Part shown: positions 5,723 to 22,281 of the stretch, piece after piece | Numbering within the stretch: position 1 is the stretch's first letter | Layout of the letters: every line of letters begins with the position of its first letter | Assembly: GCA_021081985.1 (NCBI GenBank) | Contig: GCA_021081985.1_3639.1 | Source of the DNA: a phage | DNA: 64,000 nt | Strand: one strand, 5' to 3' | Notes under the pieces: generated by a model | The model's input: the letters and a program-made list of their open reading frames with translations, nothing else | What the model was told of the DNA's origin: nothing | Databases searched by the model: none | Translations under genes and position numbers: made by a program

Positions 5723-6129
5723 TCTCGGTGTTGGATTACACACCGGAGTTTGCCTTGAAATCTAATGTTGGGGGTTTCCATGTAAATCCGAAAGCTGGGT
5801 CATACATCGCTGTCCCGACAGAGTGGGTTTTTGATGAACGGTTATCACCAAGCGATCTGCAAAGATTGATACGCTTGTTGTGGAGATACGAGTATTTCAA
5901 GAATCTGAACCCTCTGGGTGGGGAACTGGTATTCTTTCCGTCACAACAATCCTTGTGTGGCCTGTTGGGGTGGAATGAAAACTCACGAACCAAAGTGTCT
6001 GAATTTCTGTCTCGGATGGAGAGCTTTGGTTATATCAGGCGTGTTAGATCAGGATTTCAGGATTCTGATGGTAACGTGAAACCAAGAAATTATATTATCG
6101 TCAATCGTATCAGAGGGGATAAATCATGA
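5704..6129 (+). CDS. hypothetical protein
   Basis: 141 aa ORF, 4-nt overlap with the downstream Prs-like gene; start uncertain because it overlaps the promoter-like site. Confidence 0.4.
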   Translation: MGLWVAFSVLDYTPEFALKSNVGGFHVNPKAGSYIAVPTEWVFDERLSPSDLQRLIRLLWRYEYFKNLNPLGGELVFFPSQQSLCGLLGWNENSRTKVSEFLSRMESFGYIRRVRSGFQDSDGNVKPRNYIIVNRIRGDKS

Positions 6130-6999: not shown

Positions 7000-8715
7000 A
7001 TGCTTCACAAAGAAAGTCCATTGCTGTTTGCAGATTTTTATAAACCAAGTCACATCTCGATGTACGACAAACGTTCACAGTTTGTTCAAGACAACATGAC
7101 ACCACGCAATGCGAAACACTTTGTACACTTTGCAGATGATGACCATCGTGTAATGTTTGCTGGTCTTCAGGGATTTATCAAGTGGTTCCTGATTGACATG
7201 TTTAATAATAATTTCTTTGCTTTACCGAAAGAAAAGGCGATTCAGGATTACAAAGAGATTTGTGATTTGAGCATTGGGAAGGATGCTGTTGAAACTTGGG
7301 GTTTTGAGAGATTGCATGATCTTGGATATCTCCCAATTGAAATTAGAGCTTTGCCTGAAGGAACTCTTGTTCCTGTTCAGGTTCCTATGTTCACGATTCA
7401 GAACACGCACCCTGATTTTTACTGGCTGCCAAACTTCCTTGAGAGCGTGATCTCCTCGGAGACTTGGAAGACAATTACCACGGCAACGACTTTCTGGCAA
7501 TATCGTAAACTATCAGAACTGTGGGCAAAGAAAACATGTGATAACAACGATCACGTTCCTTTCCAGAACCATTGTTTTGCATACCGTGGTGAAGCTGGAA
7601 CACATGACGCAGCACAGAGCGAATTTGGGCAACTGATTAGCTCAATGGGCACAGATACAATTCCAGCGATTGTTTACGCAAATCGCTATTACAACATGAA
7701 AGGTCGCTTTGTTGCTGGGTCTATTCCCGCATCTGAGCATAGCGTAGCGACAACGAACATTGGTTTTATTGTTGAGCGTATCCAGCAGGAAAATCCTGAC
7801 ATGTCGCTTGCTGAAGCACGTTTTCGTGCTGAAGTTGAGTTCTTAAAGCGTTATGCAACAGAGATTTTTCCGTCAGGCTATGCTTCATACGTCGCAGACA
7901 GCTATGATTTTTGGGCAATCATTACACAAGCAGCCAAAATCCTGAAAGATGAGATTATGTCTCGTGATGGCAAGCTGGTCTTCCGACCGGACAGTGGGAT
8001 CCCAGAGCACATCATTGCTGGCTATCGTGTGTGCTCTCAGGAAGAATGGGCAACGGGACAGTGCTGTGATATGGATGCTGTGCTGTTTAAAAATGGCAAA
8101 TATGTCACTCTGTACGAGATGTCCAGAGACACTTCTTGGATGCGAGATTCGGAAGGCAACCTCGTAGATTGGAAATCTTTGACAGGTGATGAATTTACAA
8201 ATTATCTTACCAAAGAGGAGGTTAAGGGTGCTGTACAATGCTTGTGGGAAATCTTTGGTGGTAGTGTAAACTCTTTGGGTTACAAAGTTCTTGATAGCCA
8301 TGTTGGTTTAATCTACGGAGACTCTATCACAATCTCTCGTGCTAAAGAGATCTTTGAGCGCCTTGAAGAACGAGGCTTTGCTTCCAGCAACATTGTGTTT
8401 GGTGTAGGATCTTATACAACGCAATATACAACCCGTGATTCTCTTGGGATGGCTGTAAAAGCTACTGGTGCTGTGATTGATGGCAGACAAGTAATGGTTG
8501 TAAAAGAGCCTAAGACTGATCTTGGGAAGAAATCTGCGAAAGGTTTTGTTAAAGTTATTCGTGGTGATGATGGTGAGTTGAAGCTGGTAGATAATCTTGG
8601 TATTAATCAGGTATCTGACCCTGACAACGAGCTTAGAACAGTTTTTGTTAATGGTAAGCTGCTTGTGGATGAGGATCTTGAAGAAATTCGTCAAAGAGCT
8701 TTGTCACAGCTTTAG
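7000..8715 (+). CDS. nicotinamide phosphoribosyltransferase family protein
   Basis: 571 aa; N-terminus LFADFYKPSH and overall length typical of NAMPT/NadV. Confidence 0.75.
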   Translation: MLHKESPLLFADFYKPSHISMYDKRSQFVQDNMTPRNAKHFVHFADDDHRVMFAGLQGFIKWFLIDMFNNNFFALPKEKAIQDYKEICDLSIGKDAVETWGFERLHDLGYLPIEIRALPEGTLVPVQVPMFTIQNTHPDFYWLPNFLESVISSETWKTITTATTFWQYRKLSELWAKKTCDNNDHVPFQNHCFAYRGEAGTHDAAQSEFGQLISSMGTDTIPAIVYANRYYNMKGRFVAGSIPASEHSVATTNIGFIVERIQQENPDMSLAEARFRAEVEFLKRYATEIFPSGYASYVADSYDFWAIITQAAKILKDEIMSRDGKLVFRPDSGIPEHIIAGYRVCSQEEWATGQCCDMDAVLFKNGKYVTLYEMSRDTSWMRDSEGNLVDWKSLTGDEFTNYLTKEEVKGAVQCLWEIFGGSVNSLGYKVLDSHVGLIYGDSITISRAKEIFERLEERGFASSNIVFGVGSYTTQYTTRDSLGMAVKATGAVIDGRQVMVVKEPKTDLGKKSAKGFVKVIRGDDGELKLVDNLGINQVSDPDNELRTVFVNGKLLVDEDLEEIRQRALSQL

Positions 8716-9626: not shown

Positions 9627-9702
9627 GGCCCCTTAGCTCAGTGGTTAGAGCAGGTGACTCATAATCGCTTGGTCGCTGGTTAAAGTCCAGCAGGGGCCAC
9701 CA
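9627..9702 (+). tRNA. tRNA-Met (CAU)
   Basis: Acceptor GGCCCCT/AGGGGCC, anticodon loop CTCATAA, T-arm GGTTAAAGTCC, encoded CCA. Confidence 0.8.
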
Positions 9703-9754
9703 AATGTGGCACACGAAATAAACTAGGTTTATTGTTTTCGGAGGAGAAAACTTA

Positions 9755-10078
9755 ATGGCTAAGAAACAGTCTGCTAAAAAGGTATCAGCTATCGAGGCGA
9801 TCAAGCAACCTTTTCAGTTTGAATCAAAATCCACGCAGACACATTCTGCACCGCACGATGTGCGTCTTGGTGGCAAAACGCAAACTGTAGCAGTTCTGAA
9901 AAAACGCAAAGATGAAGACGGTAATACTGAAATGTATTATGAATCTGTGTCTCGTGTCATTGGTGGTGAAGTGATTTCTGCTTCCTATCGTATCCGTACT
10001 GGGAAAACAAAGCGTGAACGAGAAGTGAAACAGAAAACAAGCACTCCTGTAGGAAACGTTAAGAAAACTAAAAAATAA
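9755..10078 (+). CDS. hypothetical Lys-rich basic protein
   Basis: 107 aa ORF directly after tRNA-Met. Confidence 0.4.
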   Translation: MAKKQSAKKVSAIEAIKQPFQFESKSTQTHSAPHDVRLGGKTQTVAVLKKRKDEDGNTEMYYESVSRVIGGEVISASYRIRTGKTKREREVKQKTSTPVGNVKKTKK

Positions 10079-10154
10079 TTTACTGACGAGAGTGCCACCG
10101 TGAGCCAGCGTCATTAAACAAAGGGAATCACGGACATTCAGGAGGGTTGAGATT

Positions 10155-10346
10155 ATGATAGGATCTTTGCTTAAGATTGCAAGCGATGTAACAACAACGG
10201 CTGTTGAAGTGACTGCTGCGGTAACAACTCCGTTTGTTGATTTAGCATCAGATGCTATAGCAGCAGCAGACGAGATGATTTTGTCACCGACATCTGATCT
10301 TGTCCAAGATCTTTGTGATTCTATAAAAGATGCTGTAAAAGATTAA
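10155..10346 (+). CDS. hypothetical small acidic protein
   Basis: 63 aa, rich in Asp/Glu/Ala/Thr. Confidence 0.35.
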   Translation: MIGSLLKIASDVTTTAVEVTAAVTTPFVDLASDAIAAADEMILSPTSDLVQDLCDSIKDAVKD

Positions 10347-10354
10347 AATTTTTC

Positions 10355-10383
10355 TTGACATAGTTTTTGTTTTTCTGTATAGT
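10355..10383 (+). promoter_or_regulatory. sigma70-like promoter
   Basis: TTGACA, 17 nt, TATAGT. Confidence 0.55.
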
Positions 10384-10419
10384 TACTTTATCAAAGCTAA
10401 TTTACATAGGAGAGATTGA

Positions 10420-11067
10420 ATGTCTACTAAGATTTCCGTAACTCGTGCACTTGCTTCTATCTCTAAGATTGAAGATAAGATCAATAAGCGCATTTATAAC
10501 CTTGAATGTATTAAGATTGCAAAAGGAACTGAGAATAATTGTAAGATTCCTGGTTATATCGGCTCTGTTGATGATTTTAAGAAATCTGCGATCAACGACT
10601 ATCAAAGTCTGCAAGACCTCTTGGCAGTTCGCGATGAACTGAAGGCAAAAATTGTCAAGTCTAATGCTGAGACAATTGTCAAAATTGGTAAGGTGTCTAT
10701 GACAGTTGCTGAGGCAATCGAACGCAAACGGACGATTTGCTTTAAACAAGAGTTGTTAAACAAACTTTGTGCACAGCGTGCTTCTGCACAGCTTCTTCTG
10801 GCAAAAGAAGAAAAATCTCTGGAAGATAAACTTGAAAATGCCAGAGCGCCATATATCCAACGTGATAAAGCGCCAGATGCAGAGCAGATTAAGACTGTGG
10901 AAGCTCCCATTCGAATGATGAACACACCATCGGTTGTGGATCCTCTTGAACTGGCTTCTAAGATTCGTTCTCTTGAAGAAGAGATTGAAGATTTCTTGTC
11001 TAACGTTGATTTTGCGTTGTCTGAGTCAAACGCTAAGACAGAAATTGAGATTGAGCACTCTCTCTAA
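10420..11067 (+). CDS. hypothetical coiled-coil protein
   Basis: 215 aa, charged and helix-rich. Confidence 0.5.
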   Translation: MSTKISVTRALASISKIEDKINKRIYNLECIKIAKGTENNCKIPGYIGSVDDFKKSAINDYQSLQDLLAVRDELKAKIVKSNAETIVKIGKVSMTVAEAIERKRTICFKQELLNKLCAQRASAQLLLAKEEKSLEDKLENARAPYIQRDKAPDAEQIKTVEAPIRMMNTPSVVDPLELASKIRSLEEEIEDFLSNVDFALSESNAKTEIEIEHSL

Positions 11068-11432
11068 AAGGCTCTGATAATATCATTATCGTTCCTTTGT
11101 TTTGAAATTTAAAACATTGCTTTTGATTAACGAAGTTTACATCATCTTGCCTCCTGGGGATTGGAGGTTAAATATTCCCCACCATGTATCGTATATGTAT
11201 GAGGATAATACAGAACATAGATGCAGCGAGGCACACGAAGATGCTTTGTTGTTTCCACTAAGTAAAAGTTCATACAATAAAGGTCAATGGTTAAATGTGA
11301 AAGATGAAACTTGAAAGTTGACTCTTGAAAGATAAAATTTCGTTTATCATCTGAAATCCTTGACACAGGTTATGGCTCACAAGATATGGTCTGTAAAGCC
11401 TCAAGGCTGTTAATCGGAAGCAATGTCTTATT

Positions 11433-11507
11433 GCTCGTATAGCTCAACGGTAGAGCACCTGCCTTGTAAGCAGGGGGTTGCAGGTTCGAAACCTGCTGCG
11501 AGCACCA
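11433..11507 (+). tRNA. tRNA-Thr (UGU)
   Basis: Acceptor GCTCGTA/TGCGAGC, D-arm GCTC..GAGC, anticodon loop CTTGTAA, T-arm GCAGGTTCGAAACCTGC, CCA. Confidence 0.8.
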
Positions 11508-11509
11508 AT

Positions 11510-11606
11510 GCTGGGTAAGCCCTTTGGCAAGGGCGAGGATTTATAATCCTGAAAATAGACGGGCTAGCCGTTGAATACATAGGTGGTTCGATTCCATCAC
11601 CCAGCC
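11510..11606 (+). ncRNA. non-canonical tRNA-like RNA
   Basis: tRNA-type acceptor (GCTGGGT/ACCCAGC), D-arm and T-arm (GGTGGTTCGATTCCATC), but the anticodon position is a closed hairpin AGGATT-tat-AATCCT followed by a second tight hairpin; about 97 nt, no CCA. Confidence 0.4.
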
Positions 11607-11807
11607 ACAAGTTTGTTTTATAGTGTATTAGCTTATATTATTCGATATAAATGCCTGATCAGCATTTGTTGTGAATGAGGCATACAATGCGTGAGAAAGC
11701 TATCGGTGCGCAACGTTGATTTCAAACGTAGTCATGCTCGTAGAGCACCAACTGTGGAAGTTGGAGGGTGGTTGAGTAACCATACACTATAAAGCATTCT
11801 TTAAAAT

Positions 11808-11892
11808 GGGCGGTGTCCCCACACAAGTCTTCTAAACTTGTACTTAAAAAGTGGGAAGGAAGTGAGAGGTTCGATTCCTCCACCGTCTACCA
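11808..11892 (+). ncRNA. non-canonical tRNA-like RNA
   Basis: 3' end TTCGATTCC...ACCGTCTACCA with a pairing 5' segment GGGCGGT, no D-arm, internal hairpin ACAAGT-cttctaa-ACTTGT. Confidence 0.3.
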
Positions 11893-11968
11893 GATTAACC
11901 CCAACTTGAGAATCGTCAGCGCGGCTCGTAAGACCCACTCTATAGGTTCTCTACCTGGGGTGCTTATT

Positions 11969-12045
11969 GCACGGTTGCCGGAATTTGGTTACGGGTCTGT
12001 CTGCAAAACGGATATATGTCGGTTCAAGTCCGACACCGTGCTCCA
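11969..12045 (+). tRNA. tRNA-Cys (GCA)
   Basis: Acceptor GCACGGT/ACCGTGC, anticodon arm TCTGT-CTGCAAA-ACGGA, T-arm GTCGGTTCAAGTCCGAC, CCA; D-stem imperfect. Confidence 0.65.
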
Positions 12046-12082
12046 AACTTTCAATTTCTTGGCAAATATGTTAAAATACCAC

Positions 12083-12111
12083 TTGACAGATATGTTTTTA
12101 TTTGATAATAT
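12083..12111 (+). promoter_or_regulatory. sigma70-like promoter
   Basis: TTGACA, 17 nt, TAATAT, followed by RBS and ATG at 12132. Confidence 0.6.
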
Positions 12112-12131
12112 CATTAAGTGGGGTTTTTAAA

Positions 12132-12479
12132 ATGGCTACTAAGCAGCTTACAAAACGTAGAAGAGGAAAAGGTCGTCCTCTGAAAGAGGAATCTAATGCA
12201 ATTCAGTTAGAGAAAAATATCCTAGATTTGAAAACGAATCTGATTGCAATGATTCCTGAAGCTCATCAGGTTCTTAGGGATTTGATGAAGAATGTGAATA
12301 CAAAAGACAATATCAGAGAAAATATCGCTCGTTATGTTATTGAGAAAGGTGAGCAGATGCTTTCTGATTACTTTGATGAGGAAAACGAAGAGTTACTCGA
12401 AAAAGATAACTCAGAAAAAGCGCCTATTAAGGCAGCCAAACCATTCTCGACGGATATTGTTCAATTCAAACAAGGTTAA
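12132..12479 (+). CDS. hypothetical protein with basic N-terminus
   Basis: ORF track 12102..12479; start moved to the ATG after the promoter and RBS (MATKQLTKRRRGKGRP...). Confidence 0.45.
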   Translation: MATKQLTKRRRGKGRPLKEESNAIQLEKNILDLKTNLIAMIPEAHQVLRDLMKNVNTKDNIRENIARYVIEKGEQMLSDYFDEENEELLEKDNSEKAPIKAAKPFSTDIVQFKQG

Positions 12480-12480
12480 T

Positions 12481-12570
12481 GTGTCGTTAGACCGTAGGGG
12501 TAGCGGGGGAGACTGTAAATCTCCTGTCTCGAAAGGGACTCGGGTAGTTCGACTCTATCACGGCACACCA
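12481..12570 (+). tRNA. tRNA-Tyr (GUA), type II
   Basis: Acceptor GTGTCGT/ACGGCAC, anticodon arm GGAGA-CTGTAAA-TCTCC, long variable arm, T-arm GGTAGTTCGACTCTATC, CCA. Confidence 0.75.
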
Positions 12571-12638
12571 ACTAAATCTGTACTGGCTTTGATGTGTGAC
12601 GATACCCTCCAATCGTGGTTGTTGGGTCAGTACAGTTT

Positions 12639-12714
12639 GGGAGTGTAGATCAGTTAGTAGATCGCTCGACCGATAATCGAGAGGACGTAGGGGCAGAGCC
12701 TACCACTCCCACCA
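12639..12714 (+). tRNA. tRNA-Ile (GAU)
   Basis: Acceptor GGGAGTG/CACTCCC, D-arm GATC..GATC, anticodon arm CTCGA-CCGATAA-TCGAG, CCA; position 33 is C and the T-loop is atypical. Confidence 0.6.
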
Positions 12715-12719
12715 AATAT

Positions 12720-12794
12720 GCATCCATAGTTTAATTGGGAAAACTACAGCCTTCCAAGCTGAAGTCGAGGGTTCGATGCCCTCTGGATGCTCCA
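12720..12794 (+). tRNA. tRNA-Gly (UCC)
   Basis: Acceptor GCATCCA/TGGATGC, anticodon loop CTTCCAA, T-arm GAGGGTTCGATGCCCTC, CCA. Confidence 0.75.
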
Positions 12795-12919
12795 GTTAAA
12801 AGATGTCAATGAAATCCGCTTGGGTCAACTGAAGACCGTAACAAATTCCATGGGGTTGTGTTTGCGGTCCAACCCTAGACATCTTCTATCTTTAGTAGAA
12901 GGCTTTAATACGGACGAGT

Positions 12920-13150
12920 ATGATGGTTTCTAAATTAATCATAACAAGGCATCATAATGCTAAAGAAATAGAGATTGTGAATGCTGCTGGCACTCTTGTG
13001 CTAAAAGTTGGTAAAGACTGTCCTTTTGAATTGTGCCAGAAGGAACTTTTAAGTTTGTGCGGTTTCAGGTTTAAACAGATTATCTTTGAAAATGCTTTTC
13101 AATATTCAGACTTAAACCAGTACATTATATCTAGGCTTGATCCTGCATGA
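12920..13150 (+). CDS. hypothetical small protein
   Basis: 76 aa ORF, 4-nt overlap with the next gene. Confidence 0.35.
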   Translation: MMVSKLIITRHHNAKEIEIVNAAGTLVLKVGKDCPFELCQKELLSLCGFRFKQIIFENAFQYSDLNQYIISRLDPA

Positions 13151-13704
13151 GATACTTGAAATATTTATCTTGGATCCTGTTAGCACCTCTTGATCCAATT
13201 ATGTCGGCTCTCTGTGTTATTCTGGCTCCTTTTGTTGTTCCGTTCTATAATGAGAAGACAGGGCATCTACCCTATATTTTCAGGTGGATGGAAACATATG
13301 ATAATCCTATAGACGGTGACAGAGGACACATAGAGAGATGGGAAGAAGTCCGTAAAATAGGAAGTTTTGGTGTTTACCTACAACGAGTTGCTTGGTTGTG
13401 GAGAAATAAAGCCTACAATTTTTCCTATCACGTACTTGGACGTGAAATCGCATCTGTGACAAAGTGGAAAGGAAACATCCATGTAAGCTCTGATGTGGAG
13501 GATAATCAACAAGGCTATTTGTTGATGTGGAATGACAATGCGTGGGGTGTATTCGCGTTTGTCCCGTCTTTTAGATTGTTTGGAAAACAATTTTACTGGC
13601 GAATTTATGTCGGTTGGAAACTGAAGAGTGTGGTTCCTGAAGACAGAGCTTTTTCAAGAGAGAGGGTGATGTTGGCATTTTTCATAAGTCCTTTCCGAAA
13701 ATAG
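13147..13704 (+). CDS. hypothetical membrane protein
   Basis: 185 aa, hydrophobic N-terminal segment LSWILLAPLDPIMSALCVILAPFVVPF. Confidence 0.45.
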   Translation: MRYLKYLSWILLAPLDPIMSALCVILAPFVVPFYNEKTGHLPYIFRWMETYDNPIDGDRGHIERWEEVRKIGSFGVYLQRVAWLWRNKAYNFSYHVLGREIASVTKWKGNIHVSSDVEDNQQGYLLMWNDNAWGVFAFVPSFRLFGKQFYWRIYVGWKLKSVVPEDRAFSRERVMLAFFISPFRK

Positions 13705-13710
13705 TTTTTA

Positions 13711-13792
13711 ATGAGAGTAGCGTAACTTCACTGGGTGAAGGCTGGCCTCCAAAACCAGTGACTAAGAGGTTCGATTCCTCACTCTCGTGCCA
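13711..13792 (+). tRNA. tRNA-like, possibly tRNA-Trp (CCA)
   Basis: Acceptor ATGAGAG/CTCTCGT, loop CTCCAAA, T-arm GAGGTTCGATTCCTC, CCA; D-region is over-long and non-canonical. Confidence 0.4.
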
Positions 13793-13793
13793 A

Positions 13794-13869
13794 AGGGGAT
13801 TAGCATAGTGGCCTAATGCAACGGGCTTTGACCCCGTGATCGGTTGTTCGAATCAACCATCCCCTGCCA
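13794..13869 (+). tRNA. tRNA-Gln (UUG)
   Basis: Acceptor AGGGGAT/ATCCCCT, D-arm GCAT..ATGC, anticodon arm ACGGG-CTTTGAC-CCCGT, T-arm GGTTGTTCGAATCAACC, CCA. Confidence 0.8.
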
Positions 13870-13878
13870 AGTTAAAAC

Positions 13879-13968
13879 GGAGAAGCAAATCGATTGGCGA
13901 CGAAACCACATTGGAAATGTGCTGACTGGTAAAACGGCTTGAGAGTTCGATTCTCTCCTTCTCCACCA
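13879..13968 (+). tRNA. tRNA-Ser (GGA), type II
   Basis: Acceptor GGAGAAG/CTTCTCC, anticodon loop TTGGAAA, long variable arm, T-arm GAGAGTTCGATTCTCTC, CCA. Confidence 0.7.
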
Positions 13969-13982
13969 GTTTTTAAGGATTT

Positions 13983-14726
13983 ATGTATGCACTCTCCCCA
14001 AGAAAAAAAAATGGAAAACAGATATTTAATTTGTTGAAAAGCGGAAAAGGCTTCTCAAACCCGCTTCAATCAGGTCTTTCTCTGGTTGGTGGTAAAGTAA
14101 GTAGTCTATCTTCTTTATCTTCCTCTATTTCTTCGGTAACTAACCCAGCTATAAAGGCTCAATTAGCTGCCGCAGGTTTGACAACTGGCGTTTTATCAAA
14201 TTTTACTTCGTCTCTTGGTTCTGTTACAAGCACGACAAAAACGCTTGTTGATTATGGTCAGAAATCTGTTGAAGAGTTCTCCCAAAGAATGCACGCAGCG
14301 AGTAATTATATGAGTACTCTGAGCAGAATGGGAGAAAAGACAAGTTGTTCAATATTTAGTGACGTTATGTCTGTAGCCACTGATTTAGGTAAGAAAGCTA
14401 TGGATGCCGTTAATTCCGCGATGGATGCGGTGAACGATGTTATGTCTCAATTGCAAGATGCAATAAATAAGGGTTTGAATACAATATCTAGTTTGGCGAG
14501 TAAAGCTGTCTCAGCGATAAACAAAGGGATCCAGAAAATGTCTGAGTATGCTAGCCAAGTGACAAAGATGATTGAAGATGAAGCAAAGAAGTTGGCAGAC
14601 TACTTAAAGACAAGTGCTGAAGGATTTCTCGCAGATATCCTACCTGATTGGTTTAACGATTCTTGTAAATCTGGTATAGTTGACCAGATTGCTACACCAG
14701 AGATGAAAGAAGTTCTTAAAAAGTAA
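13983..14726 (+). CDS. hypothetical protein with Ser/Thr-rich N-terminus and amphipathic helical repeats
   Basis: 247 aa; repeated AMDAVN/SAINKG-type helices. Confidence 0.5.
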   Translation: MYALSPRKKNGKQIFNLLKSGKGFSNPLQSGLSLVGGKVSSLSSLSSSISSVTNPAIKAQLAAAGLTTGVLSNFTSSLGSVTSTTKTLVDYGQKSVEEFSQRMHAASNYMSTLSRMGEKTSCSIFSDVMSVATDLGKKAMDAVNSAMDAVNDVMSQLQDAINKGLNTISSLASKAVSAINKGIQKMSEYASQVTKMIEDEAKKLADYLKTSAEGFLADILPDWFNDSCKSGIVDQIATPEMKEVLKK

Positions 14727-14728
14727 TT

Positions 14729-14822
14729 GGAAGATTAACCCTAATTTGGTAAGGGGTCTCCCTGCTAAGGAGATAGTAACCCAGAAATGGGTGTGCCAGT
14801 TCAAGTCTGGCATCTTCCTCCA
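14729..14822 (+). tRNA. tRNA-Ser (GCU), type II
   Basis: Acceptor GGAAGAT/ATCTTCC, anticodon arm TCTCC-CTGCTAA-GGAGA, long variable arm, T-arm GCCAGTTCAAGTCTGGC, CCA. Confidence 0.75.
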
Positions 14823-14901
14823 CTGTATGTCAAGGCTCAGATTTCTTCGGACCTGGGCGTTCGCCTTTGTTGGGTGTATATTCTCGGCAGAGGCTATCTT
14901 T

Positions 14902-14990
14902 GGAGGCTGGGGTGCATGGTGCACAAGCTGGTTTGAACCCAGTCCCGCTGTAGAGATATGGTGACAGTTCGATTCTGTCAGCCTCCTCCA
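14902..14990 (+). tRNA. tRNA-Ser (UGA), type II
   Basis: Acceptor GGAGGCT/AGCCTCC, anticodon arm GCTGG-TTTGAAC-CCAGT, long variable arm, T-arm GACAGTTCGATTCTGTC, CCA. Confidence 0.7.
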
Positions 14991-15213
14991 AGTTATCTTT
15001 AATGTAGCTTGTTTAGTTGCTTGGTGTGATTTTTCGGTGGATGGCTGCAACCATCTTATCGATACCCCAGAGCAGTCCGCTCTTTACTGGCGTAAGCCAA
15101 ACACTTATGATGGTCATGTAATCGTAATCTATCATTAGTGTGCTCTCCCTGGAGAGCTGTTGCGTATAGCTAATTATTGTGTGAGTAATTAGCTATTTTA
15201 AAGATAATTTGAC

Positions 15214-15290
15214 GGATCTGTAGCCAAATGGTTTAAGGCACTCGACTTTTAATCGAGAGATTGTTGGTTCGAATCCAACCAGATCCACCA
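15214..15290 (+). tRNA. tRNA-Lys (UUU)
   Basis: Acceptor GGATCTG/CAGATCC, anticodon arm CTCGA-CTTTTAA-TCGAG, T-arm GTTGGTTCGAATCCAAC, CCA. Confidence 0.85.
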
Positions 15291-15299
15291 AAATATTCA

Positions 15300-15390
15300 G
15301 GTTCTTTGACCGAGTGGTCGATGGTGACGGCCTGTTAAGCCGTTGGGAGGAATCTCCCCACCGAAGGTTCGAATCCTTCAGGAACCGCCA
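15300..15390 (+). tRNA. type II tRNA with GUU anticodon (nominally Asn)
   Basis: Acceptor GGTTCTT/AGGAACC, anticodon arm ACGGC-CTGTTAA-GCCGT, 19-nt variable arm with hairpin GGGAG/CTCCC, T-arm GAAGGTTCGAATCCTTC, CCA. Confidence 0.55.
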
Positions 15391-15474
15391 ATTCTTGACT
15401 TAATCAAGTCACAGATATCACCTAGCCAGCGATACCAGTTAGTAGATTCTGGGACAATTAAAATCTACATTTCT

Positions 15475-15552
15475 CTGTCCGTAGCGCAGCTTGGGTAGCG
15501 CGGGTCACTTGGGATGATCAGGTCGTTGGTTCAAATCCAACCGGACAGACCA
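15475..15552 (+). tRNA. tRNA-Pro (UGG)
   Basis: Acceptor CTGTCCG/CGGACAG, D-arm GCGC..GCGC, anticodon arm GGTCA-CTTGGGA-TGATC, T-arm GTTGGTTCAAATCCAAC, CCA. Confidence 0.8.
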
Positions 15553-15594
15553 ATAAACATATACATATCAAAGCAGAAATGTACAGAGGATACC

Positions 15595-15786
15595 ATGTTA
15601 ACAGTTAAAGTCGTATCTCCAAATGATGAACAAATTTTTTGTGGGAAAATTGTTGGGTATTGTGCTCATCAAAAGTCTATAGCTATTTCAGGTATTGACC
15701 AAAAAGTGTTTTTGTCTGAGGATCAGACCGCTTATGTGATCAATGCCAATGGAAAAACTATTTCTGTGTATCGTGGAAAACCGTAA
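15595..15786 (+). CDS. hypothetical small protein
   Basis: ORF track 15514..15786 begins inside tRNA-Pro; internal Met (MLTVKVV...) taken as start. Confidence 0.3.
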   Translation: MLTVKVVSPNDEQIFCGKIVGYCAHQKSIAISGIDQKVFLSEDQTAYVINANGKTISVYRGKP

Positions 15787-15800
15787 CTCTTAATATAAAT

Positions 15801-15877
15801 GGGCGATTGATGGAATTGGTATACATGTCAGGCTTAGAACCTGAATTTTGGGGGTTCGAGTCCCTCATCGCCTACCA
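15801..15877 (+). tRNA. type I tRNA with UAG anticodon (nominally Leu)
   Basis: Acceptor GGGCGAT/ATCGCCT, anticodon arm TCAGG-CTTAGAA-CCTGA, 5-nt variable loop, T-arm GGGGGTTCGAGTCCCTC, CCA. Confidence 0.55.
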
Positions 15878-15882
15878 ATTAT

Positions 15883-15958
15883 GTGACGGTAACTCAGTTG
15901 GTAGAGTGCCTTGCTGAAGACTAGGTGGTCACAGGTTCGAATCCTGTCCGTCACACCA
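15883..15958 (+). tRNA. tRNA-Phe (GAA)
   Basis: Acceptor GTGACGG/CCGTCAC, D-arm ACTC..GAGT, anticodon loop CTGAAGA, T-arm ACAGGTTCGAATCCTGT, CCA. Confidence 0.75.
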
Positions 15959-15973
15959 AACAGGAAATAGATT

Positions 15974-16204
15974 ATGCGAAGAAAATTGAAGAGTGCATAT
16001 ATCCAAAAAATAGAGACAGTTAGAAAATTTTGTGCTGGGTGGCCTCTTATTCTACTTATTGCCGATTCTAGGTATACTACTCAAGATGTGAAGAACTACA
16101 AGAAAGTAGATAAGTATTGTCGGACAAAGAAAGGAAGACTTGATGGTACTTATGAGATCCATTTTGGTCATCCACCTAGAAGGATTTCTCTTGGTAATAA
16201 ATGA
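15974..16204 (+). CDS. hypothetical small protein
   Basis: 76 aa ORF between tRNAs. Confidence 0.3.
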   Translation: MRRKLKSAYIQKIETVRKFCAGWPLILLIADSRYTTQDVKNYKKVDKYCRTKKGRLDGTYEIHFGHPPRRISLGNK

Positions 16205-16208
16205 ACAT

Positions 16209-16284
16209 TGCGAGTTTGAAGTCTGGTGACTTCGCTGGTCTCATAAGCCAGTCCAGATTGGTTCGATCCCAATACTCGCAACCA
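16209..16284 (+). tRNA. tRNA-Met (CAU), second copy
   Basis: Acceptor TGCGAGT/ACTCGCA, D-arm GAAG..CTTC, anticodon arm CTGGT-CTCATAA-GCCAG, T-arm ATTGGTTCGATCCCAAT, CCA. Confidence 0.75.
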
Positions 16285-16416
16285 GAATTAAAGTGGACAC
16301 TAAGGAAGGTCGTGGCTGAGTAAACGGTAAGACACTCTCGACATGTAAAGGTTCCTTCGCCACTTTTCTCAAATAACTATAATAATAATCCAATCAATCT
16401 CCTCTCCTATGCCTAA

Positions 16417-16440
16417 CCCCGCCTCTTGCGGGGTTTTTCT
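16417..16440 (+). terminator. rho-independent terminator at end of tRNA island
   Basis: CCCCGC-ctctt-GCGGGG followed by TTTTTCTTT. Confidence 0.7.
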
Positions 16441-16486
16441 TTATGTGCTAGTCTTTACGCATCTTGTTTTGTACTTAAGGATAGCT

Positions 16487-17848
16487 AAGATGTTGCATGT
16501 TTTCAAAAAAGAAGATTTTCAAAGAGAGTATGACATTTTGTGCTCTTTTATACCAAAAGGTGTTTATGATTTATTGTCAAAGCTGGATGTTAAGATAGCT
16601 GGCGGTGCAATAACCTCTTTGTTCTCTAATAGTAAAGTCAACGATCTTGATTTGTATTTCCCATCTTGGGAAAGCCTTGAGATATTCATTGCGTACATGA
16701 TGGATAAAAGACTCTTGTCAGGGAAATATGATTTGTCTAAGAAAACAAATGGCTGGGCGTCAGATCAAAAAATAGCATTTAGGCATTTCTATAAACTTGA
16801 TCACGGTGATCCAGCATTTTCAAATTTTACAGATCCTCTTTCTATAGGTAGAGAATATGACAATGAATACGATTATTTATGTGATGAAGATGATAATTTG
16901 CCAACCATGAAAAAGGTTGGTGTGACAGATAAGAGTGTGATGTTTTACTTTGGACAAGAGCCTGTCTTTCAATGTGTGGCTGTGGATGTGTTCAAAACAA
17001 CAGAAGACATCTTTAGCAAATTTGATTTTACAATAAATATGGGTGCTTTTAACTTCAAAGATGGTGTGTGGGAATTTAATAGCAATTTCTTAAAACATAT
17101 TGCTCAAAGAGTTTTGGTTGTAAATCATAAAACTGAATACCCGATTATGTCACTTTTGAGATCTGAAAAATACAAATCTCGTGGCTATACAATTTCGAAA
17201 AAAGAGACAATGAAACTGGCTATGACCATTGCTAACCTTCAGATAGAAGGTTGGGAATCGGCAAAGTCACATCTTAGCGGGATGTACGGAATGAAACTGT
17301 CAGATATTTTTGATGAGACAAAACAGTTTTCACTTGATTCTTTGGTTGAGTGCCTAGACAGATTAGAATCTTGTTGCCAGCAGGTAGACAAAAATGTTAC
17401 CCCTGTGCAACCGTTGCCGTTTAATGATGTATCTAAAGTTAATATGTTTAATATTTTTCAAAGATTAAGAAAAGCAACAGGCAGGAAATACTTTACAAAA
17501 CTATATGGGGTTTGTCCTGCTGAAGTTTTCTATCTTATGATGCCAACAAAAGATACACATTATGTTGGGCTTTACAAAGAAGATATAGCAAATAATTTTC
17601 CCACTCTCAGACTTTATGTTGATGAGAAGAAGGCAAGAGAATATTACGAATACCTGTGTGAGTGTGGTAAGACAGATGGTTATGGATGCCTAATGTATAA
17701 ACCTGGGGCAGTTCTCTTAGATGTCTCAATAAGTGATCCATCTAAGATGCAATACGATATCATAACTGATGAGATTAATATTTATGAAAACAGAAAAACA
17801 ACATTGAAAATTGAAAACATTATTGTGTGTGATGGGGATATATCATGA
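16487..17848 (+). CDS. hypothetical protein, possible Pol-beta-type nucleotidyltransferase fold
   Basis: ORF track 16409..17848 starts inside the terminator; likely start is ATG at 16487 with RBS AAGGAT. N-terminal GGAITSLFSNSKVNDLDLYF fits the G[GS]-x9-13-DxD signature. Confidence 0.45.
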   Translation, partial: KMLHVFKKEDFQREYDILCSFIPKGVYDLLSKLDVKIAGGAITSLFSNSKVNDLDLYFPSWESLEIFIAYMMDKRLLSGKYDLSKKTNGWASDQKIAFRHFYKLDHGDPAFSNFTDPLSIGREYDNEYDYLCDEDDNLPTMKKVGVTDKSVMFYFGQEPVFQCVAVDVFKTTEDIFSKFDFTINMGAFNFKDGVWEFNSNFLKHIAQRVLVVNHKTEYPIMSLLRSEKYKSRGYTISKKETMKLAMTIANLQIEGWESAKSHLSGMYGMKLSDIFDETKQFSLDSLVECLDRLESCCQQVDKNVTPVQPLPFNDVSKVNMFNIFQRLRKATGRKYFTKLYGVCPAEVFYLMMPTKDTHYVGLYKEDIANNFPTLRLYVDEKKAREYYEYLCECGKTDGYGCLMYKPGAVLLDVSISDPSKMQYDIITDEINIYENRKTTLKIENIIVCDGDIS

Positions 17849-18246
17849 TATGGTTTAAAACGCTGTTAACTTTCTTTTCTAGGAACATAAAACAGATAGG
17901 TGTTGTTTTGTGTTGTGTGGTTCTCGTCTGTGGTATCTTGGGGATAAAACATTGGTATAATGACCAGTTAACATCGTCCTACAACGCAGGTGTCAGCGAC
18001 ACGGATCTTAAATGGGAGAGGATTAACCAGCAAGTTAGAGATCACAACAACGCTTTTAAAAAACAACAGCAGGATAAGATCGATGAGTTGTCAACCATGT
18101 TGGTGAAAGAGAGAGAAATTAATAACCAACTGAAAGAAGACCTTGATAAAAAGGTTAAAAGTTATAGCAAAACACAAGCAGGAAAACAGGTTTGCCTCGA
18201 TAACCAGTTTGTTGATATCTATAACGACAGTTTGGGGTCTAAATGA
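17845..18246 (+). CDS. i-spanin-like protein
   Basis: 133 aa; N-terminal transmembrane helix then charged coiled-coil; 4-nt overlap with a lipoprotein gene. Confidence 0.5.
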   Translation: MIWFKTLLTFFSRNIKQIGVVLCCVVLVCGILGIKHWYNDQLTSSYNAGVSDTDLKWERINQQVRDHNNAFKKQQQDKIDELSTMLVKEREINNQLKEDLDKKVKSYSKTQAGKQVCLDNQFVDIYNDSLGSK

Positions 18247-18536
18247 AAAAGTATGTTATCATGGTTCCTTTTCTATTGTTTATGTTAACAGGGTGCACTT
18301 CACCACCTGAGAGAGTTGTTCCTGTTGCAAAAGAGATCATAATAAGCGATATCCTAGCAAGACCACCCGCTGAAGCTATGATACCACCGAAAGAACCTGA
18401 AAAATTGCCAGGTGGTCTTAGTAATGCAGATGCTATCGAGGTGATTAAGAAAAACAACATTAAGGCTGCTGAAGATCGTATGAAATTAAGAACGTTACAG
18501 CAGTATGTAAAGACAATATTTTCTTCAGACAAATAG
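18243..18536 (+). CDS. o-spanin-like outer-membrane lipoprotein
   Basis: 97 aa; signal peptide with lipobox LTGC, Pro-rich mature region. Confidence 0.55.
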   Translation: MKKYVIMVPFLLFMLTGCTSPPERVVPVAKEIIISDILARPPAEAMIPPKEPEKLPGGLSNADAIEVIKKNNIKAAEDRMKLRTLQQYVKTIFSSDK

Positions 18537-18544
18537 TTGACAAT

Positions 18545-18577
18545 GCCCTTATTTAATGATAAGGGCTTTATTTTTAT
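18545..18577 (+). terminator. rho-independent terminator
   Basis: GCCCTTAT-ttaatg-ATAAGGGC followed by TTTATTTTTAT. Confidence 0.6.
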
Positions 18578-18631: not shown

Positions 18632-19978
18632 TTGAGTAAAGTATTTGGACCTGCCAGTCCTAAACAAAAAATGATTTTGGAGAGTAAAGCCCAAATTCTA
18701 ATAATTGGCGGGGCCGCCGGGTGTTTGTCTAAAGACCACGAGGTGTTGACACCATCTGGCTGGATTAAGATATCAGAATGGTCAGGACAGGACATTCTGC
18801 AATATGATAAAGCCACTGGGGAGGCTAAATTTATCCCTCCTTTAGAGTTTGTTAAACTCCCTTGTGAAAAACTTACAAGAATAGAAGGTAATGGTATTTG
18901 TCAAGAGCTATCTGACGAACATACTGTGATTTATAAACCAGACTATAAATCACAGCCAAGAACACTTTCTTTTTCTGAAGTGGCAGAAAGACATAACAAC
19001 TCTGTTAAAAAAGGTTGGACAGGTAAGTTCATAACTACATTTAACTATGATGGGCCTGGGATAGACATGACAGAAGGGGAATTAAGGCTTCAGGTTGCTG
19101 TCATGGCTGATGGGAGAGTTGTTAAAGAAGGGAAAGATAATTATACACAGATGCGCTTTGCTAAAAAGCGTAAATATGACCGCTTAATCGAACTTTGTAA
19201 AAAGTTTGGATTAAGATATGAAGATAGAGGATCAAAACCCAGTGAAAGATATACCACTGGGGAACAGTACGAGGTCATTGTATGGCCTAAATATCCTGAT
19301 AAAAAATTTACAGAGAAATACTATCAGTGTTCAAATGAACAACTGGAGATAATACTTGATGAGATTTTTCATTGGGATGGTTCTTTTTGTAAGCCATATG
19401 GCGGTAAAACACATAATAGCTTTACAGGTAGATATTTTACTGCTCATAAGACGAACGCTGATTTTGTTCAGTTTATAGGATCTTCTCTTGGTTATAATAC
19501 CACCATAAGCCATGATACAAGAAGTGGAAAGGACAGTTATACTGTTAATATTATGGCTAGAGGAAAAGGATTAAGGTCACTGGCTAATAAAGACAGAAAA
19601 GCTGAGTTTAAAGAGTTTATACCTACGGATGGGTTTAAATACTGCTTTGTAACACAAACAGGTTTCTTTGTTACCAGACTAGAAGATTGTGTGGTTGTCA
19701 CTGGGAATAGTGGAAAATCATATCTCCTACAATTGATGCCGCTTGCTTATGTCGATGACCCGCAGACAGCATGTATAATGTTTCGTAGGACAACACCTCA
19801 ATTGACAGGTGCAGGTGGACTTTTTGATACAGCGAAAAGTATTTATTTGCAACTCGATAAGGAATGGAAGCCGAAGTTCAGGGAGAAAGCTCTGGAAGCA
19901 ATTTTCCCATCTGGGGCAAAGGTGTTGTGGAGACACATGGAGTATGAGAATAACAAATTAGATCATCAGGGTGAATAG
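18632..19978 (+). CDS. terL: terminase large subunit, 5' part (N-extein, intein, C-extein segment)
   Basis: TTG start with RBS GGAGG; Walker A split as IIGGAAG | intein | SGKSYLL; translation stops at 19978 where the putative intron begins. Confidence 0.75.
   Translation: MSKVFGPASPKQKMILESKAQILIIGGAAGCLSKDHEVLTPSGWIKISEWSGQDILQYDKATGEAKFIPPLEFVKLPCEKLTRIEGNGICQELSDEHTVIYKPDYKSQPRTLSFSEVAERHNNSVKKGWTGKFITTFNYDGPGIDMTEGELRLQVAVMADGRVVKEGKDNYTQMRFAKKRKYDRLIELCKKFGLRYEDRGSKPSERYTTGEQYEVIVWPKYPDKKFTEKYYQCSNEQLEIILDEIFHWDGSFCKPYGGKTHNSFTGRYFTAHKTNADFVQFIGSSLGYNTTISHDTRSGKDSYTVNIMARGKGLRSLANKDRKAEFKEFIPTDGFKYCFVTQTGFFVTRLEDCVVVTGNSGKSYLLQLMPLAYVDDPQTACIMFRRTTPQLTGAGGLFDTAKSIYLQLDKEWKPKFREKALEAIFPSGAKVLWRHMEYENNKLDHQGE
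18722..19708 (+). mobile_element. intein in terminase P-loop (329 aa), with LAGLIDADG-like endonuclease motifs
   Basis: Begins CLSKDHEVLT (block A-like Cys1), ends VVVTGN followed by Ser+1; internal LQVAVMADGRV and LDEIFHWDGS; flanking residues reconstitute GGAAGSGKS. Confidence 0.7.
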
Positions 19979-21162
19979 CTTGCCCTTCGTGCCTATAACG
20001 GTGGAACTCCCTATGGGAAAATACCGTGCCACAGAATATGGAAATATAAAATCTGGGTGTAACGACTATCTCCGATGAGTGTAGGAGAGTAGAATCACAA
20101 GCGATTGGTGATCCAAACGGCACGCCAAGGATGGAAGATATAGTCTGTTCCACATGGAAACATGTGGCGGGTGTTTTAGCACACCGCCTCAGTGTAGCGA
20201 ACTGAGGGGACAATAAGTTGCAGTATACCTTTATAGGTTTTGATGAGGGTTGGTATTAGCTCTCTTTAAACCTCCCTAATTGTCGGGGAAACCTTTATTG
20301 TTTACATAACCAAGCAAATGTGGTAACATGTTTGTGGCCTACACTAACTATGTAGGGTATGGTAATATCATGTAAAATTAGGTAATCCGCAGCGAAGCAT
20401 CCCTATGGGATGAACGTTCAACGACTATCGCTTACGGGCGTTAGGGCCAAGCGGTGAGGGAAACCTCCAGTCTTTCAGACTGCCGAAATGGGAGGATATT
20501 TGCGTAATAATATTAAAAAATGTGTTGACTGCCATAGAGAACTTCCTCTTGATAAATTTTTTCTTTCATCAAAAAGTAGTGATGGATATTCTGGAGCTTG
20601 TAAAGAATGCTACATGTATTATAGACTTAACAACTCCAGAAAGAATAAGGATATGATTAAGAAAGAGGATGCTGCCATGTTTATACAAGATTTGGTATCA
20701 TCTGGTGAACTTTTCGAATGCAAAACTTGCCGTAAGAAGTTTTTAGCTGATAATTTTTATACTAAGAGAGATTATGGTAAAGTGTATCTTGCAACAAATA
20801 GATGTAAAAGATGTGAAAAGTTTTACCAAATAGAGAGAAAGTTTGGCATCTCTGAGGAATATTACTTTTCAATGTTGGAAAGGCAGGGGTTTAAGTGCGA
20901 GATATGTAAAATACCTTTGGAAGATTATAAAAATCAAGGGTATAGAGATTTTTTCTCCGTAGATCATGACCATAAGACAGGGAAGATTAGAGGTTTGTTA
21001 TGCGATAAGTGTAACAGGGCTTTGGGATTTTTCGGAGAAAATGAGGAAACACTTTTAAATGCCGCAGAATATATACGCAAATATAAGATATAGTCTGGTC
21101 TGCATGGTGACATGCAGCAGCACGTAGTGGTGCGGGATAAGAGTAGCGATCTTATCTGAACA
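19979..21162 (+). mobile_element. putative group I intron carrying an HNH homing endonuclease ORF
   Basis: Non-coding structured flanks around the HNH ORF; 38-nt core (20383-20420) and 3' segment (21114-21162) nearly identical to sequences in the DNA polymerase interruption; terminase frame reopens right after an in-frame TGA at about 21160. Boundaries approximate. Confidence 0.5.
20488..21093 (+). CDS. HNH homing endonuclease
   Basis: 201 aa; Cys-rich N-terminus and HNH motif SVDHDHKTGKIRGLLCDKCN. Confidence 0.8.
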   Translation: MGGYLRNNIKKCVDCHRELPLDKFFLSSKSSDGYSGACKECYMYYRLNNSRKNKDMIKKEDAAMFIQDLVSSGELFECKTCRKKFLADNFYTKRDYGKVYLATNRCKRCEKFYQIERKFGISEEYYFSMLERQGFKCEICKIPLEDYKNQGYRDFFSVDHDHKTGKIRGLLCDKCNRALGFFGENEETLLNAAEYIRKYKI

Positions 21163-21240
21163 AAAACGACACAATTCACATGGTCACAGATAGATTATCT
21201 GATATCTCGTCTACGTTCAAACTCTAAATATCCGAGCAGG

Positions 21241-22281
21241 ATGGTTATCTCTTGTAACCCTGATCCAGATCATAAGATTAAAGAGTTGATTTCTTGGTAT
21301 TTAGACGATGAGGGGTATCCTATACCTGAACGTGACGGGGTGATTAGATGGTTTATAAGACGTGACGGGGAGTTTATCTGGGGTGAATCAGAGCAAGAAT
21401 TAATTGAAAAGTATTGGGATGGCAAGGATGAGAAAAGAAAGCCTAAACCACTTTCATTTTCCTTCATTTCCGCAACAATATTCGATAATCCTCCCATGCT
21501 GGAGAATAACCCAGATTATCTAGCATTCCTTGAAGGTCTTCCAGAGGTAGAAAAAGCCCAGTTATTGCATGGAAACTGGAACGCAAGACCTGAAGGGGCA
21601 AACTATTTCCAGAGATCTTATTTAAAAGAGGTTCCCTGCTTACCTCTCGGTGTTGTATCTGTTCGTCCGTATGATAAAGCAGGTACAGAAAGAACATCTG
21701 GAAACAGATATCCTGACTTTACAGCATCTGTTAAGGTAAGTAAAGACAATGATGGTTTTTACTACTTGTCTGGTGATTATTGTCCTGAATTTTTTGATGA
21801 TGGTAGATATTCGACTCAAACGCAGGGAAGATTCTGTAAAAAAGCTGGGGAACGTGATGTTATCATTAAGAAACAGGCTTATTTTGATGGTGATGATGTC
21901 ACCATAATTTTCAGTGTTGACCCAGGACAAGCAGGAATAAGTGAATTTTTAACAAGCTCCCGTGAACTAATAGCGGAAGGGTTTACAGTAGAAAAAGATC
22001 CTACACCAAGCAATAAATCAAAATTAACACGATTCACACCGTTTGCAAAACTTGCTCAAGCAGGTATGGTGAGAATAGTTCGTGATAGTTTTGATCCTAA
22101 AACTTATGAAGCCCTTATGACAGAGCTTGAAAAGTTCAATGGGGAAAGGAGTACTACGACAAGAAAAGACGATTGGGTCGACGCCATTTCTTCTGGGATA
22201 AATTATCTTGAAAAAGAAGAAATAGTCAAACCTGTTGTTATTCCAAAAATTGTAGCTCCTACCTTGTATAAAAGAATATAA
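21241..22281 (+). CDS. terL: terminase large subunit, 3' part
   Basis: 346 aa from first ATG; reading frame is open upstream to about 21163, so the true exon probably starts there without its own start codon. Confidence 0.7.
   Translation: MVISCNPDPDHKIKELISWYLDDEGYPIPERDGVIRWFIRRDGEFIWGESEQELIEKYWDGKDEKRKPKPLSFSFISATIFDNPPMLENNPDYLAFLEGLPEVEKAQLLHGNWNARPEGANYFQRSYLKEVPCLPLGVVSVRPYDKAGTERTSGNRYPDFTASVKVSKDNDGFYYLSGDYCPEFFDDGRYSTQTQGRFCKKAGERDVIIKKQAYFDGDDVTIIFSVDPGQAGISEFLTSSRELIAEGFTVEKDPTPSNKSKLTRFTPFAKLAQAGMVRIVRDSFDPKTYEALMTELEKFNGERSTTTRKDDWVDAISSGINYLEKEEIVKPVVIPKIVAPTLYKRI

Follow-up and report, generated by a model that had tools for sequence, protein, structure and literature searches.

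A gene on the plus strand of a 64,000-nucleotide (nt) stretch of phage DNA (contig GCA_021081985.1_3639.1 of GenBank assembly GCA_021081985.1; the whole stretch is called the window below) codes for a protein of 452 amino acids (aa) that, by alignment, is a full-length homologue of the validated Gad2 (Gabija anti-defence 2). The protein is predicted to combine a class II-type Pol-beta nucleotidyltransferase (NTase) core, with a conserved metal site (D52, D54, D179), and a C-terminal module with an ADP-ribosyltransferase (ART)-like fold. It is probably the Gad2 of a Vequintavirinae phage, a two-module enzyme that would protect the phage from Gabija catalytically, by nucleotidyl transfer. As judged from the similarity of this region to Escherichia phage Av-05 (Vequintavirinae, Avunavirus; 95.8% identical over 2.3 kb), the window comes from an Av-05-like Avunavirus infecting E. 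coli.

Membership of the Gad2 family has been established through relatives of the protein. A search of 5.8 billion proteins returned 90 homologues, every one of them with a precomputed match to PF26128 (Gad2), which in a 93%-identical orthologue (P0001) was found at E <= 1e-5. In phage genomes, tblastn matched a coding sequence (CDS) annotated as 'Gad2' in Bacillus phage SPbetaL7 (OQ921347.1), and BLASTP aligned the protein with it over 167 aa at 36% identity (E 1e-30) and over the N-terminal 50 aa at 42% (E 9e-10); hhalign of the family profile against SPbetaL7 Gad2 gave a probability of 100% and an E value of 1.3e-73 over 337 columns, including the C-terminal domain. An exhaustive profile search found 6,217 cluster representatives at E <= 1e-3 (751 at E <= 1e-30), and relatives turned up in 167 viral contigs and in 144 phage records. 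Phages carry the family, whose size goes far beyond the 170 homologues of its original description (bioRxiv 10.1101/2023.05.01.538930), and as a genome feature the gene is unremarkable within this large, already named family. The Pfam scan of the protein was empty because PF26128 was absent from the set scanned: nothing was found at E <= 10, including PF01743, apart from a disregarded sub-threshold TcpC-like_C line. NCBIfam and PADLOC scans gave no usable match, and sequence and profile searches of PDB chains with the protein gave noise only. Members of the family are acidic (median pI 5.2 and net charge about -11 in alignment A1), and SPbetaL7 Gad2 has a pI of 4.9. In the work that introduced Gad2 (Yirmiya et al., bioRxiv 10.1101/2023.05.01.538930), SPbetaL7 lacking it was sensitive to Gabija, a homologue from a Brevibacillus prophage abolished Gabija defence, SPbetaL7 Gad2 was toxic when expressed alone, and AlphaFold2 suggested a nucleotidyltransferase domain.

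The start of the gene had to be corrected. A sequence-only reading of the window had placed it at 16487-17848 with a 479-aa product; the open reading frame (ORF) is real and its end stands, but these coordinates hold 454 codons, at odds with 479 aa. The 479-aa form is the longest one, from the ATG at 16409, and 16487 is the codon just 5' of the second in-frame ATG, at 16490. The latter is most likely the true start, because nearly all homologue N-termini align on its methionine, the RefSeq annotation of Av-05 begins at the equivalent codon, and the 479-aa extension contains a terminator. In fact, the first 27 codons of the longer form cross AACCCCGCCTCTTGCGGGGTT and a T-run, which make up a terminator-like hairpin, and the 479-aa reading was rejected since its extension runs through this structure. 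This terminator, which falls within the spurious extension at the N-terminus, closes the transcription unit of the tRNAs. An AAGGA sequence is found 6-10 nt 5' of the ATG at 16490, with a spacer of 5 nt.

Fold and motifs of the two modules

The sequence-only reading had also proposed a Pol-beta-type NTase from a G[GS]-x9-13-DxD signature near the N-terminus. The signature is present (GGAITSLFSNSKVNDLDLYF, residues 38-57 of the 452-aa protein), but the regular expression alone is weak evidence and not above chance: it matches six times in the 95 window ORFs that reach 100 aa or more, and 3.0 +/- 1.7 times when the ORFs are shuffled. The motif becomes meaningful because of its conservation and its agreement with the fold: GG-x12-DxD occurs with identical spacing in all 90 homologues, and A37, G38, G39, T42, D52, D54, Y56, D179, R224, K227 and Y228 are invariant in a 60-sequence alignment, a pattern that would be expected of an active Pol-beta-type enzyme. 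An AlphaFold2 model built with this alignment (mean predicted local distance difference test, pLDDT, 88.9; predicted template modelling score, pTM, 0.88) has the class II head-neck fold. When it was compared with the PDB by Foldseek, the top 48 matches were only class II CCA-, CC- and A-adding enzymes, E. coli poly(A) polymerase I (PAP I) and FAM46/TENT5 (E 8e-7 to 3e-3). Fold comparison of the model gave values (the measure is not named) of 13.2 for PAP I, 12.5 for the Thermotoga maritima CCA enzyme, 12.4 for the Aquifex enzyme and 10.4 for FAM46B. Conservation and fold together bear out the NTase proposal.

The relationship with class II enzymes is also detected, though faintly, at the level of sequence profiles. 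The head of E. coli Cca, used as query, returned only near-identical enterobacterial Cca, and the class II profile was built from phage loci (63 sequences of phage enzymes and the E. coli class II enzymes). Aligned with it by hhalign (P 2.8e-4, 195 columns), the Gad2-like family has its motifs in register, so that GGAITS corresponds to GGAVRD, NDLD to KDRD, FDFTINMGA to RRDLTINAMA, and LRxxKY to LRxxRF. The GG and DxD, with their spacing, and D-F-T-I-N are kept; ITS stands where class II has VRD, and motif B is without its RR. The EDxxR motif (motif D) of class II enzymes is the protein template that selects CTP and ATP. In the profile alignment its E and D are deleted and its R is aligned with S221.

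A helical insertion in the head domain distinguishes this lineage. Vequintavirinae have it in a long form, and most other members, SPbetaL7 Gad2 among them, in a short one or not at all; it contains an acidic loop, EYDNEYDYLCDEDDN (16853-16897), modelled with low confidence (pLDDT 56-65 at residues 121-140). Following the neck, about 60 helical residues and a disordered linker lead to the C-terminal alpha/beta domain, which shows the split beta-sheet of the ART fold. The closest comparison was with BC2332 (PDB 2aua; 8.5, the measure again not named), followed by Tpt1/KptA and TreTu (5.7 each), Arr, PARP15 and IcmQ (5.1 each), diphtheria toxin (4.8), pertussis toxin (4.4) and CC0527 (4.2). The fold is considered ART-superfamily-like because these matches include BC2332 and CC0527, whose families belong to the SCOP ADP-ribosylation superfamily (PMC3000352). 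The H-Y-E, R-S-E and Tpt1 catalytic motifs were sought in a 27-sequence alignment of the domain, in which no column is invariant or nearly so, and the domain is probably not an active ART. In our reading the domain would bind a substrate or target, in the position that the tRNA-binding body and tail have in class II enzymes. It is most diverged in the Vequintavirinae branch, and a profile of the domain alone recovered three fragments. The class II affinity of the core and the ART-like C-terminal domain, both predicted from sequence and model, are new beyond the published description of Gad2, and by homology should hold for SPbetaL7 Gad2 too.

Action against Gabija

Gabija, one of the commonest anti-phage systems of bacteria, is present in more than 15% of sequenced prokaryotic genomes (PMC10781630). 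Two models of its action have been put forward: motif-specific DNA cleavage regulated by nucleotide levels (cited in PMC12445682) and attack on the ends of linear DNA that RecBCD does not occupy (PMC12407980). During infection, the Gad2-like protein would shield the phage from this GajA-GajB nuclease-helicase system. Its N-terminal module, a predicted class II head and neck, would most likely use ribonucleoside triphosphates, because the metal site is intact and the D-x-T-x-N motif is of the ribose-recognising kind, and the C-terminal ART-like module would bind the substrate or the target. Inhibition would proceed by catalysis, that is, by nucleotidyl transfer, unlike the stoichiometric caging exerted by Gad1. 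We infer both this enzymatic mode of action, which is favoured because the active site is conserved, and the acceptor. Given the relationship to the validated proteins, the coliphage homologue may well have anti-Gabija activity.

Three acceptors can be considered. We tentatively prefer a nucleic-acid 3'-OH, on which untemplated ribonucleotide tailing might mask or alter what Gabija senses or cuts. Three observations lead to this choice: the active site is conserved, SPbetaL7 Gad2 is toxic, and in the models above Gabija acts on DNA. The toxicity was seen without Gabija, and it points to a substrate that cells have in general, such as nucleic-acid ends or nucleotides, and away from a protein target found only in Gabija. 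Alternatively, a small-molecule nucleotide product could hold GajA in its nucleotide-inhibited state, or a protein such as GajA or GajB could be nucleotidylylated; either of these is unlikely. Since the mechanism of Gad2 is listed as unknown in the 2025-2026 literature (PMC12904381), acceptor and product are guesses.

That listing is one of several points that weigh against the proposed function. Gad2 activity has been validated for SPbetaL7 and the Brevibacillus prophage only, and identity to the coliphage protein is 27-36%. The PF26128 evidence was obtained via homologues of the protein, including P0001. Two terminators enclose the gene and the spanin genes to which its translation is coupled; late expression is possible, which would fit poorly with the model in which Gabija acts on DNA ends just after injection (PMC12407980). 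Finally, the acidity of the family, together with the net negative charge of the C-terminal domain, speaks mildly against a protein that binds polyanionic nucleic acid extensively.

Some of these points would equally suit a protein in which the chemistry is the same and the target is different or broader, the Vequintavirinae branch countering another defence system or serving a non-defence role such as RNA tailing for host shut-off. The low identity to validated Gad2, the lineage-specific insertion of about 75 aa, the C-terminal domain without an invariant residue and at its most diverged in this branch, the operon shared with lysis genes and the toxicity of SPbetaL7 Gad2 without Gabija can all be read in this way, and a family of 6,217 representatives, against the 170 homologues first described, leaves room for functional divergence. 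However, homology is collinear over the full length, including the C-terminal domain, all catalytic and neck residues are conserved, both divergent homologues from Firmicute phages block Gabija, and the accessory region around the gene also holds an NAD+-salvage anti-defence pair. A change of target is rather unlikely.

Genome surroundings and the tRNA island

The coordinates of the gene, its motifs and its immediate neighbours are collected in Table 1. That the gene stands directly after a tRNA island, as the sequence-only reading had it, is correct: the last tRNA detected by ARAGORN ends at 15958, and a further cloverleaf ends 207 nt before the ATG.

Table 1. Features of the Gad2-like gene and its flanks (positions in the window).
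Feature	Positions	Strand	Remarks
Last tRNA of the island (CAU anticodon, encoded CCA)	16208..16282	+	Rfam tRNA-clan match 16210-16279, 37 bits; cloverleaf -27.6 kcal/mol, z -3.8; 3' ACCA; missed by ARAGORN
Intrinsic terminator, 8-bp GC-rich stem and T-run	16415..16444 (stem-loop 16415-16435)	+	-13.9 kcal/mol, z -4.2; 0/200 shuffles fold as well
Gad2-family CDS, 452 aa (most likely start)	16490..17848	+	stop overlaps start of next gene (ATGA)
NTase motif A, GGAITSLFSNSKVNDLD, residues 38-54	16601..16651	+	metal-binding aspartates D52, D54; aligns with GGAVRD...KDRD of Cca
Lineage-specific helical insertion in head domain, residues ~67-140	16688..16909	+	alignment A1 columns 101-240; hhalign insert
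NTase motif B equivalent, FDFTINMGA, residues 178-186	17021..17047	+	invariant D179; counterpart of class II RRDLTINA
Neck motif, YPIMSLLRSEKYKSRGYTIS, residues 217-236	17138..17197	+	invariant R224, K227, Y228; aligns with (ED)PLRvLRaxRF
C-terminal alpha/beta domain, residues ~335-452	17492..17845	+	ADP-ribosyltransferase-superfamily-like fold
Two overlapping Rz-like spanin genes	17845..18536 (17845-18246, 18243-18536)	+	Av-05 annotation
Terminator-like hairpin, end of three-gene unit	18545..18576	+	

The gene order is terminator, Gad2-like gene, two spanin genes, terminator and then the large terminase gene. The stop codon of the Gad2-like gene overlaps the start of the first spanin gene in the ATGA at 17845-17848, which indicates translational coupling. 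No sigma-70-like promoter stands out between the 16415..16444 terminator and the ATG at 16490. The stretch from the last tRNA to the terminator (16286-16376), considered as a candidate structured RNA, was dropped, since it folds no better than shuffled sequences (z -0.5).

The island (9627-16282) comprises 14 tRNAs detected by ARAGORN and several more by Rfam only, and in nearly every tRNA gene CCA is encoded directly 3', so that CCA synthesis is not needed for their maturation. Besides the tRNA at 16208-16282, tRNA-like elements were found by Rfam alone at 11510-11606, 11807-11889, 12639-12711 (53 bits) and 13715-13786; apart from that at 12639-12711, they are weak and may be degenerate tRNAs. 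Two protein genes lie among the tRNAs, coding for a DUF7338 protein (13147-13704, E 2e-64), kept at the same place in a related contig (L151), and a DUF7217 protein (13983-14726, E 9e-75). Upstream of the island, a ribose-phosphate pyrophosphokinase-like gene (6126-6935) is followed by a gene of the NAMPT/NAPRTase family (7000-8715). We take this pair to be the NAD+ reconstitution pathway NARP2, by which phages counter host defence, and because of this identification the stretch from 6 to 18.5 kb looks like an accessory or anti-defence region.

In relation to the island, the sequence-only reading had suggested a tRNA 3'-end repair or tailing enzyme. In its broadest form the idea is that the protein rebuilds or extends the CCA of phage or host tRNAs, which would explain its place at the end of the island, and several observations are in its favour. 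Among solved structures, PAP I and the enzymes that add CCA, CC or A come closest, the GG-x12-DxD spacing of motif A is exactly that of class II, motif B reads D-F-T-I-N, the gene directly follows the tRNA island in all Vequintavirinae-type loci retrieved, and other OLD/Toprim defence nucleases cut tRNA (PMC12445682). Against it, the nucleotide-selecting EDxxR is gone (its R is S221), PF01743 scores nothing at E <= 1-10, a short helical linker and an acidic ART-like domain stand where class II enzymes hold the tRNA by a helical body and tail, the tRNA genes of the island nearly all encode CCA, and GajA has been described as a DNA nuclease (PMC12445682).

A further argument comes from genomes with two such enzymes. 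Av-05 itself encodes a canonical tRNA nucleotidyltransferase (NC_025830.1, 37649-38338), a gene that lies outside the window in the present phage, and the canonical enzyme and a Gad2-like gene are both found in KB57, GAP31, GEC_vB_MG, Ro1, GAP32, pEa_SNUABM_12 and Shewanella phage 1/40; in addition, two viral contigs were recovered by both queries (as L014/L094 and L031/L097). Thus, two enzymes of class II fold coexist in one genome in Vequintavirinae and several jumbo phages.

The neighbourhood of the gene was compared over 83 loci of the family, whose flanks extended to at most 10 kb and which were grouped into 38 lineages at 60% identity. A tRNA cluster lies directly upstream only in the Vequintavirinae-type loci (L008-L019; six of the 38 homologue groups), which represent one ancestral arrangement because the synteny with spanin and terminase genes is common to them; one further lineage has a single tRNA 400 nt downstream of the gene, and about 65 of the 83 loci have no tRNA within 10 kb. 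The place of the gene after the tRNAs is a matter of inherited synteny, within a region of accessory genes. Clustering of neighbours over the 38 lineages revealed no recurrent RNA-repair partner. The recurrent neighbours were genes of replication and nucleotide metabolism, namely those for primase-helicase, DNA polymerases, dCMP deaminase, PhoH, ClpP, methyltransferase and metallophosphoesterase, the last of which (5 lineages) was not counted as a partner, as it occupies variable positions among ordinary genes of nucleotide metabolism.

Two single contexts are reminiscent of RNA repair. In one unrelated phage lineage (L004, 6910-11558; ENA ERZ27245341 k141_193465), a 287-aa Gad2-like gene lies between a metallophosphoesterase gene and a gene of the RNA-ligase family, with a D12 methyltransferase gene and an AAA_33 kinase-like gene next, as in RNA-repair cassettes; in another locus (L003), the homologue is two genes away from an NTase of the RlaP family. 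These contexts hint at RNA repair and lend support only to the low-probability reading in which Gad2 proteins are RNA-end enzymes, a class II NTase with a Tpt1/BC2332-like ART module, that overcome Gabija through the repair or tailing of RNA, plausibly of tRNA. If this were true, the damage done by GajA, an OLD-family Toprim nuclease, would include tRNA, as recently shown for P2 Old and PARIS AriB, and both the position at the tRNA island and the neighbourhood of RNA ligase, kinase and phosphoesterase would be functional, not accidental. Nevertheless, with an RNA-repair gene recurring in none of the 38 lineages and the adjacency to tRNAs confined to one synteny block and one other lineage, we hold CCA rebuilding and the wider RNA-end role alike to be improbable. 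As for the narrower proposal, it is very unlikely that the protein is the phage's own CCA-repair enzyme: a CCA-adding function was rejected for lack of EDxxR and of the body and tail, with a canonical enzyme coexisting, CCA encoded in nearly all the tRNA genes and the adjacency restricted to one synteny block and one other lineage.

The other possibility raised from the sequence alone, an enzyme that manipulates nucleotide signals, here taken as a cGAS/DncV-like synthase or modifier of immune signalling nucleotides, is still less probable and very doubtful. The Pol-beta NTase fold with its G[GS]...DxD, the acidity of the protein and an ART-like domain that could bind ligands of the NAD+ or ADP-ribose type would be compatible with it, but the best cGAS match in Foldseek (E 0.42, probability 0.10) is well below the 48 matches to class II enzymes and TENT5, PADLOC and CD-NTase families gave no match, and no signalling nucleotide is known to take part in Gabija defence (PMC12904381, PMC12407980); a cGAS-like function was rejected. 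Finally, a dead scaffold that inhibits its target by binding alone, like the many anti-defence proteins that are stoichiometric binders and perhaps with the acidic insertion loop mimicking nucleic acid, is scarcely credible, because all 60 aligned sequences have D52, D54, D179, the GG loop and R224/K227, and all 90 homologues GG-x12-DxD, a conservation that points to selection on catalysis.

Further downstream, the large terminase gene is split (18632-22281); the terminase gene annotated here in Av-05 is shorter. The ORF at 18632-19978 has an apparent intein-like insert in the Walker A motif (IIGGAAG/CLSKDHEVLT ... VVVTGN/SGKSYLL); it is followed by an ORF of the Endonuclease VII family (20488-21093) and by the C-terminal part of the terminase (Terminase_6N/6C; 21241-22281).

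Relation to known systems and significance

The closest known proteins are the Gad2 of SPbetaL7 and that of the Brevibacillus laterosporus prophage, with which the coliphage protein has in common GGAITSxF...NDxD, FDFT(I/V)xMGA, the neck motif, the C-terminal domain, phage origin and acidity. It differs from SPbetaL7 Gad2 (27-36% identity) by its additional helical and acidic head insertion, and its C-terminal domain is without the FYKxV...SxY...FxY pattern of most other members. The genes also differ in setting, SPbetaL7 Gad2 belonging to a Bacillus phage and to the SPbeta anti-Gabija locus, and the coliphage gene to an E. coli phage, placed after a tRNA island and coupled to spanin genes. Three features are specific to the lineage: the insertion in the head, the divergence of the C-terminal domain, and a synteny that takes in the tRNA island and the spanin genes.

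Class II tRNA nucleotidyltransferases and PAP I (PF01743; PDB 3aql, 3h37, 3wfo and 1miv) are similar in the head-neck fold, but the Gad2-like protein lacks their EDxxR, the RR of motif B, the helical body and tail and the Pfam match, and the similarity is seen only from profile to profile. Filing it as a CCA-adding enzyme is unwarranted, as motif D, the body and tail and the Pfam model that define class II all fail. The FAM46/TENT5 poly(A) polymerases (PDB 6jyj and 8exf) are eukaryotic, have no ART-like domain and show no detectable sequence relationship to the Gad2-like protein. As regards the ART superfamily, the C-terminal domain of Gad2 has 7-16% identity to the BC2332-like branch (PDB 2aua; SCOP d.166.1.6) and Tpt1/KptA, and is without their catalytic residues. 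To our knowledge, Gad2 is the only Gabija inhibitor with an enzymatic look. Gad1 of the SPbeta group, unrelated in sequence, presumably has the same target system. It is not an enzyme, and encircles GajAB and blocks its binding to DNA (bioRxiv 10.1101/2023.05.01.538930), whereas proteins of the Gad2 family keep an enzyme active site.

These results sharpen the description of Gad2, which would consist of a core of the class II CCA/poly(A)-polymerase type, minus the nucleotide template and the tRNA-binding domains, plus an ART-like module, and this architecture makes its mechanism more directly testable. They also flag the Vequintavirinae, which are in use for phage therapy and biocontrol, as likely to be resistant to Gabija.

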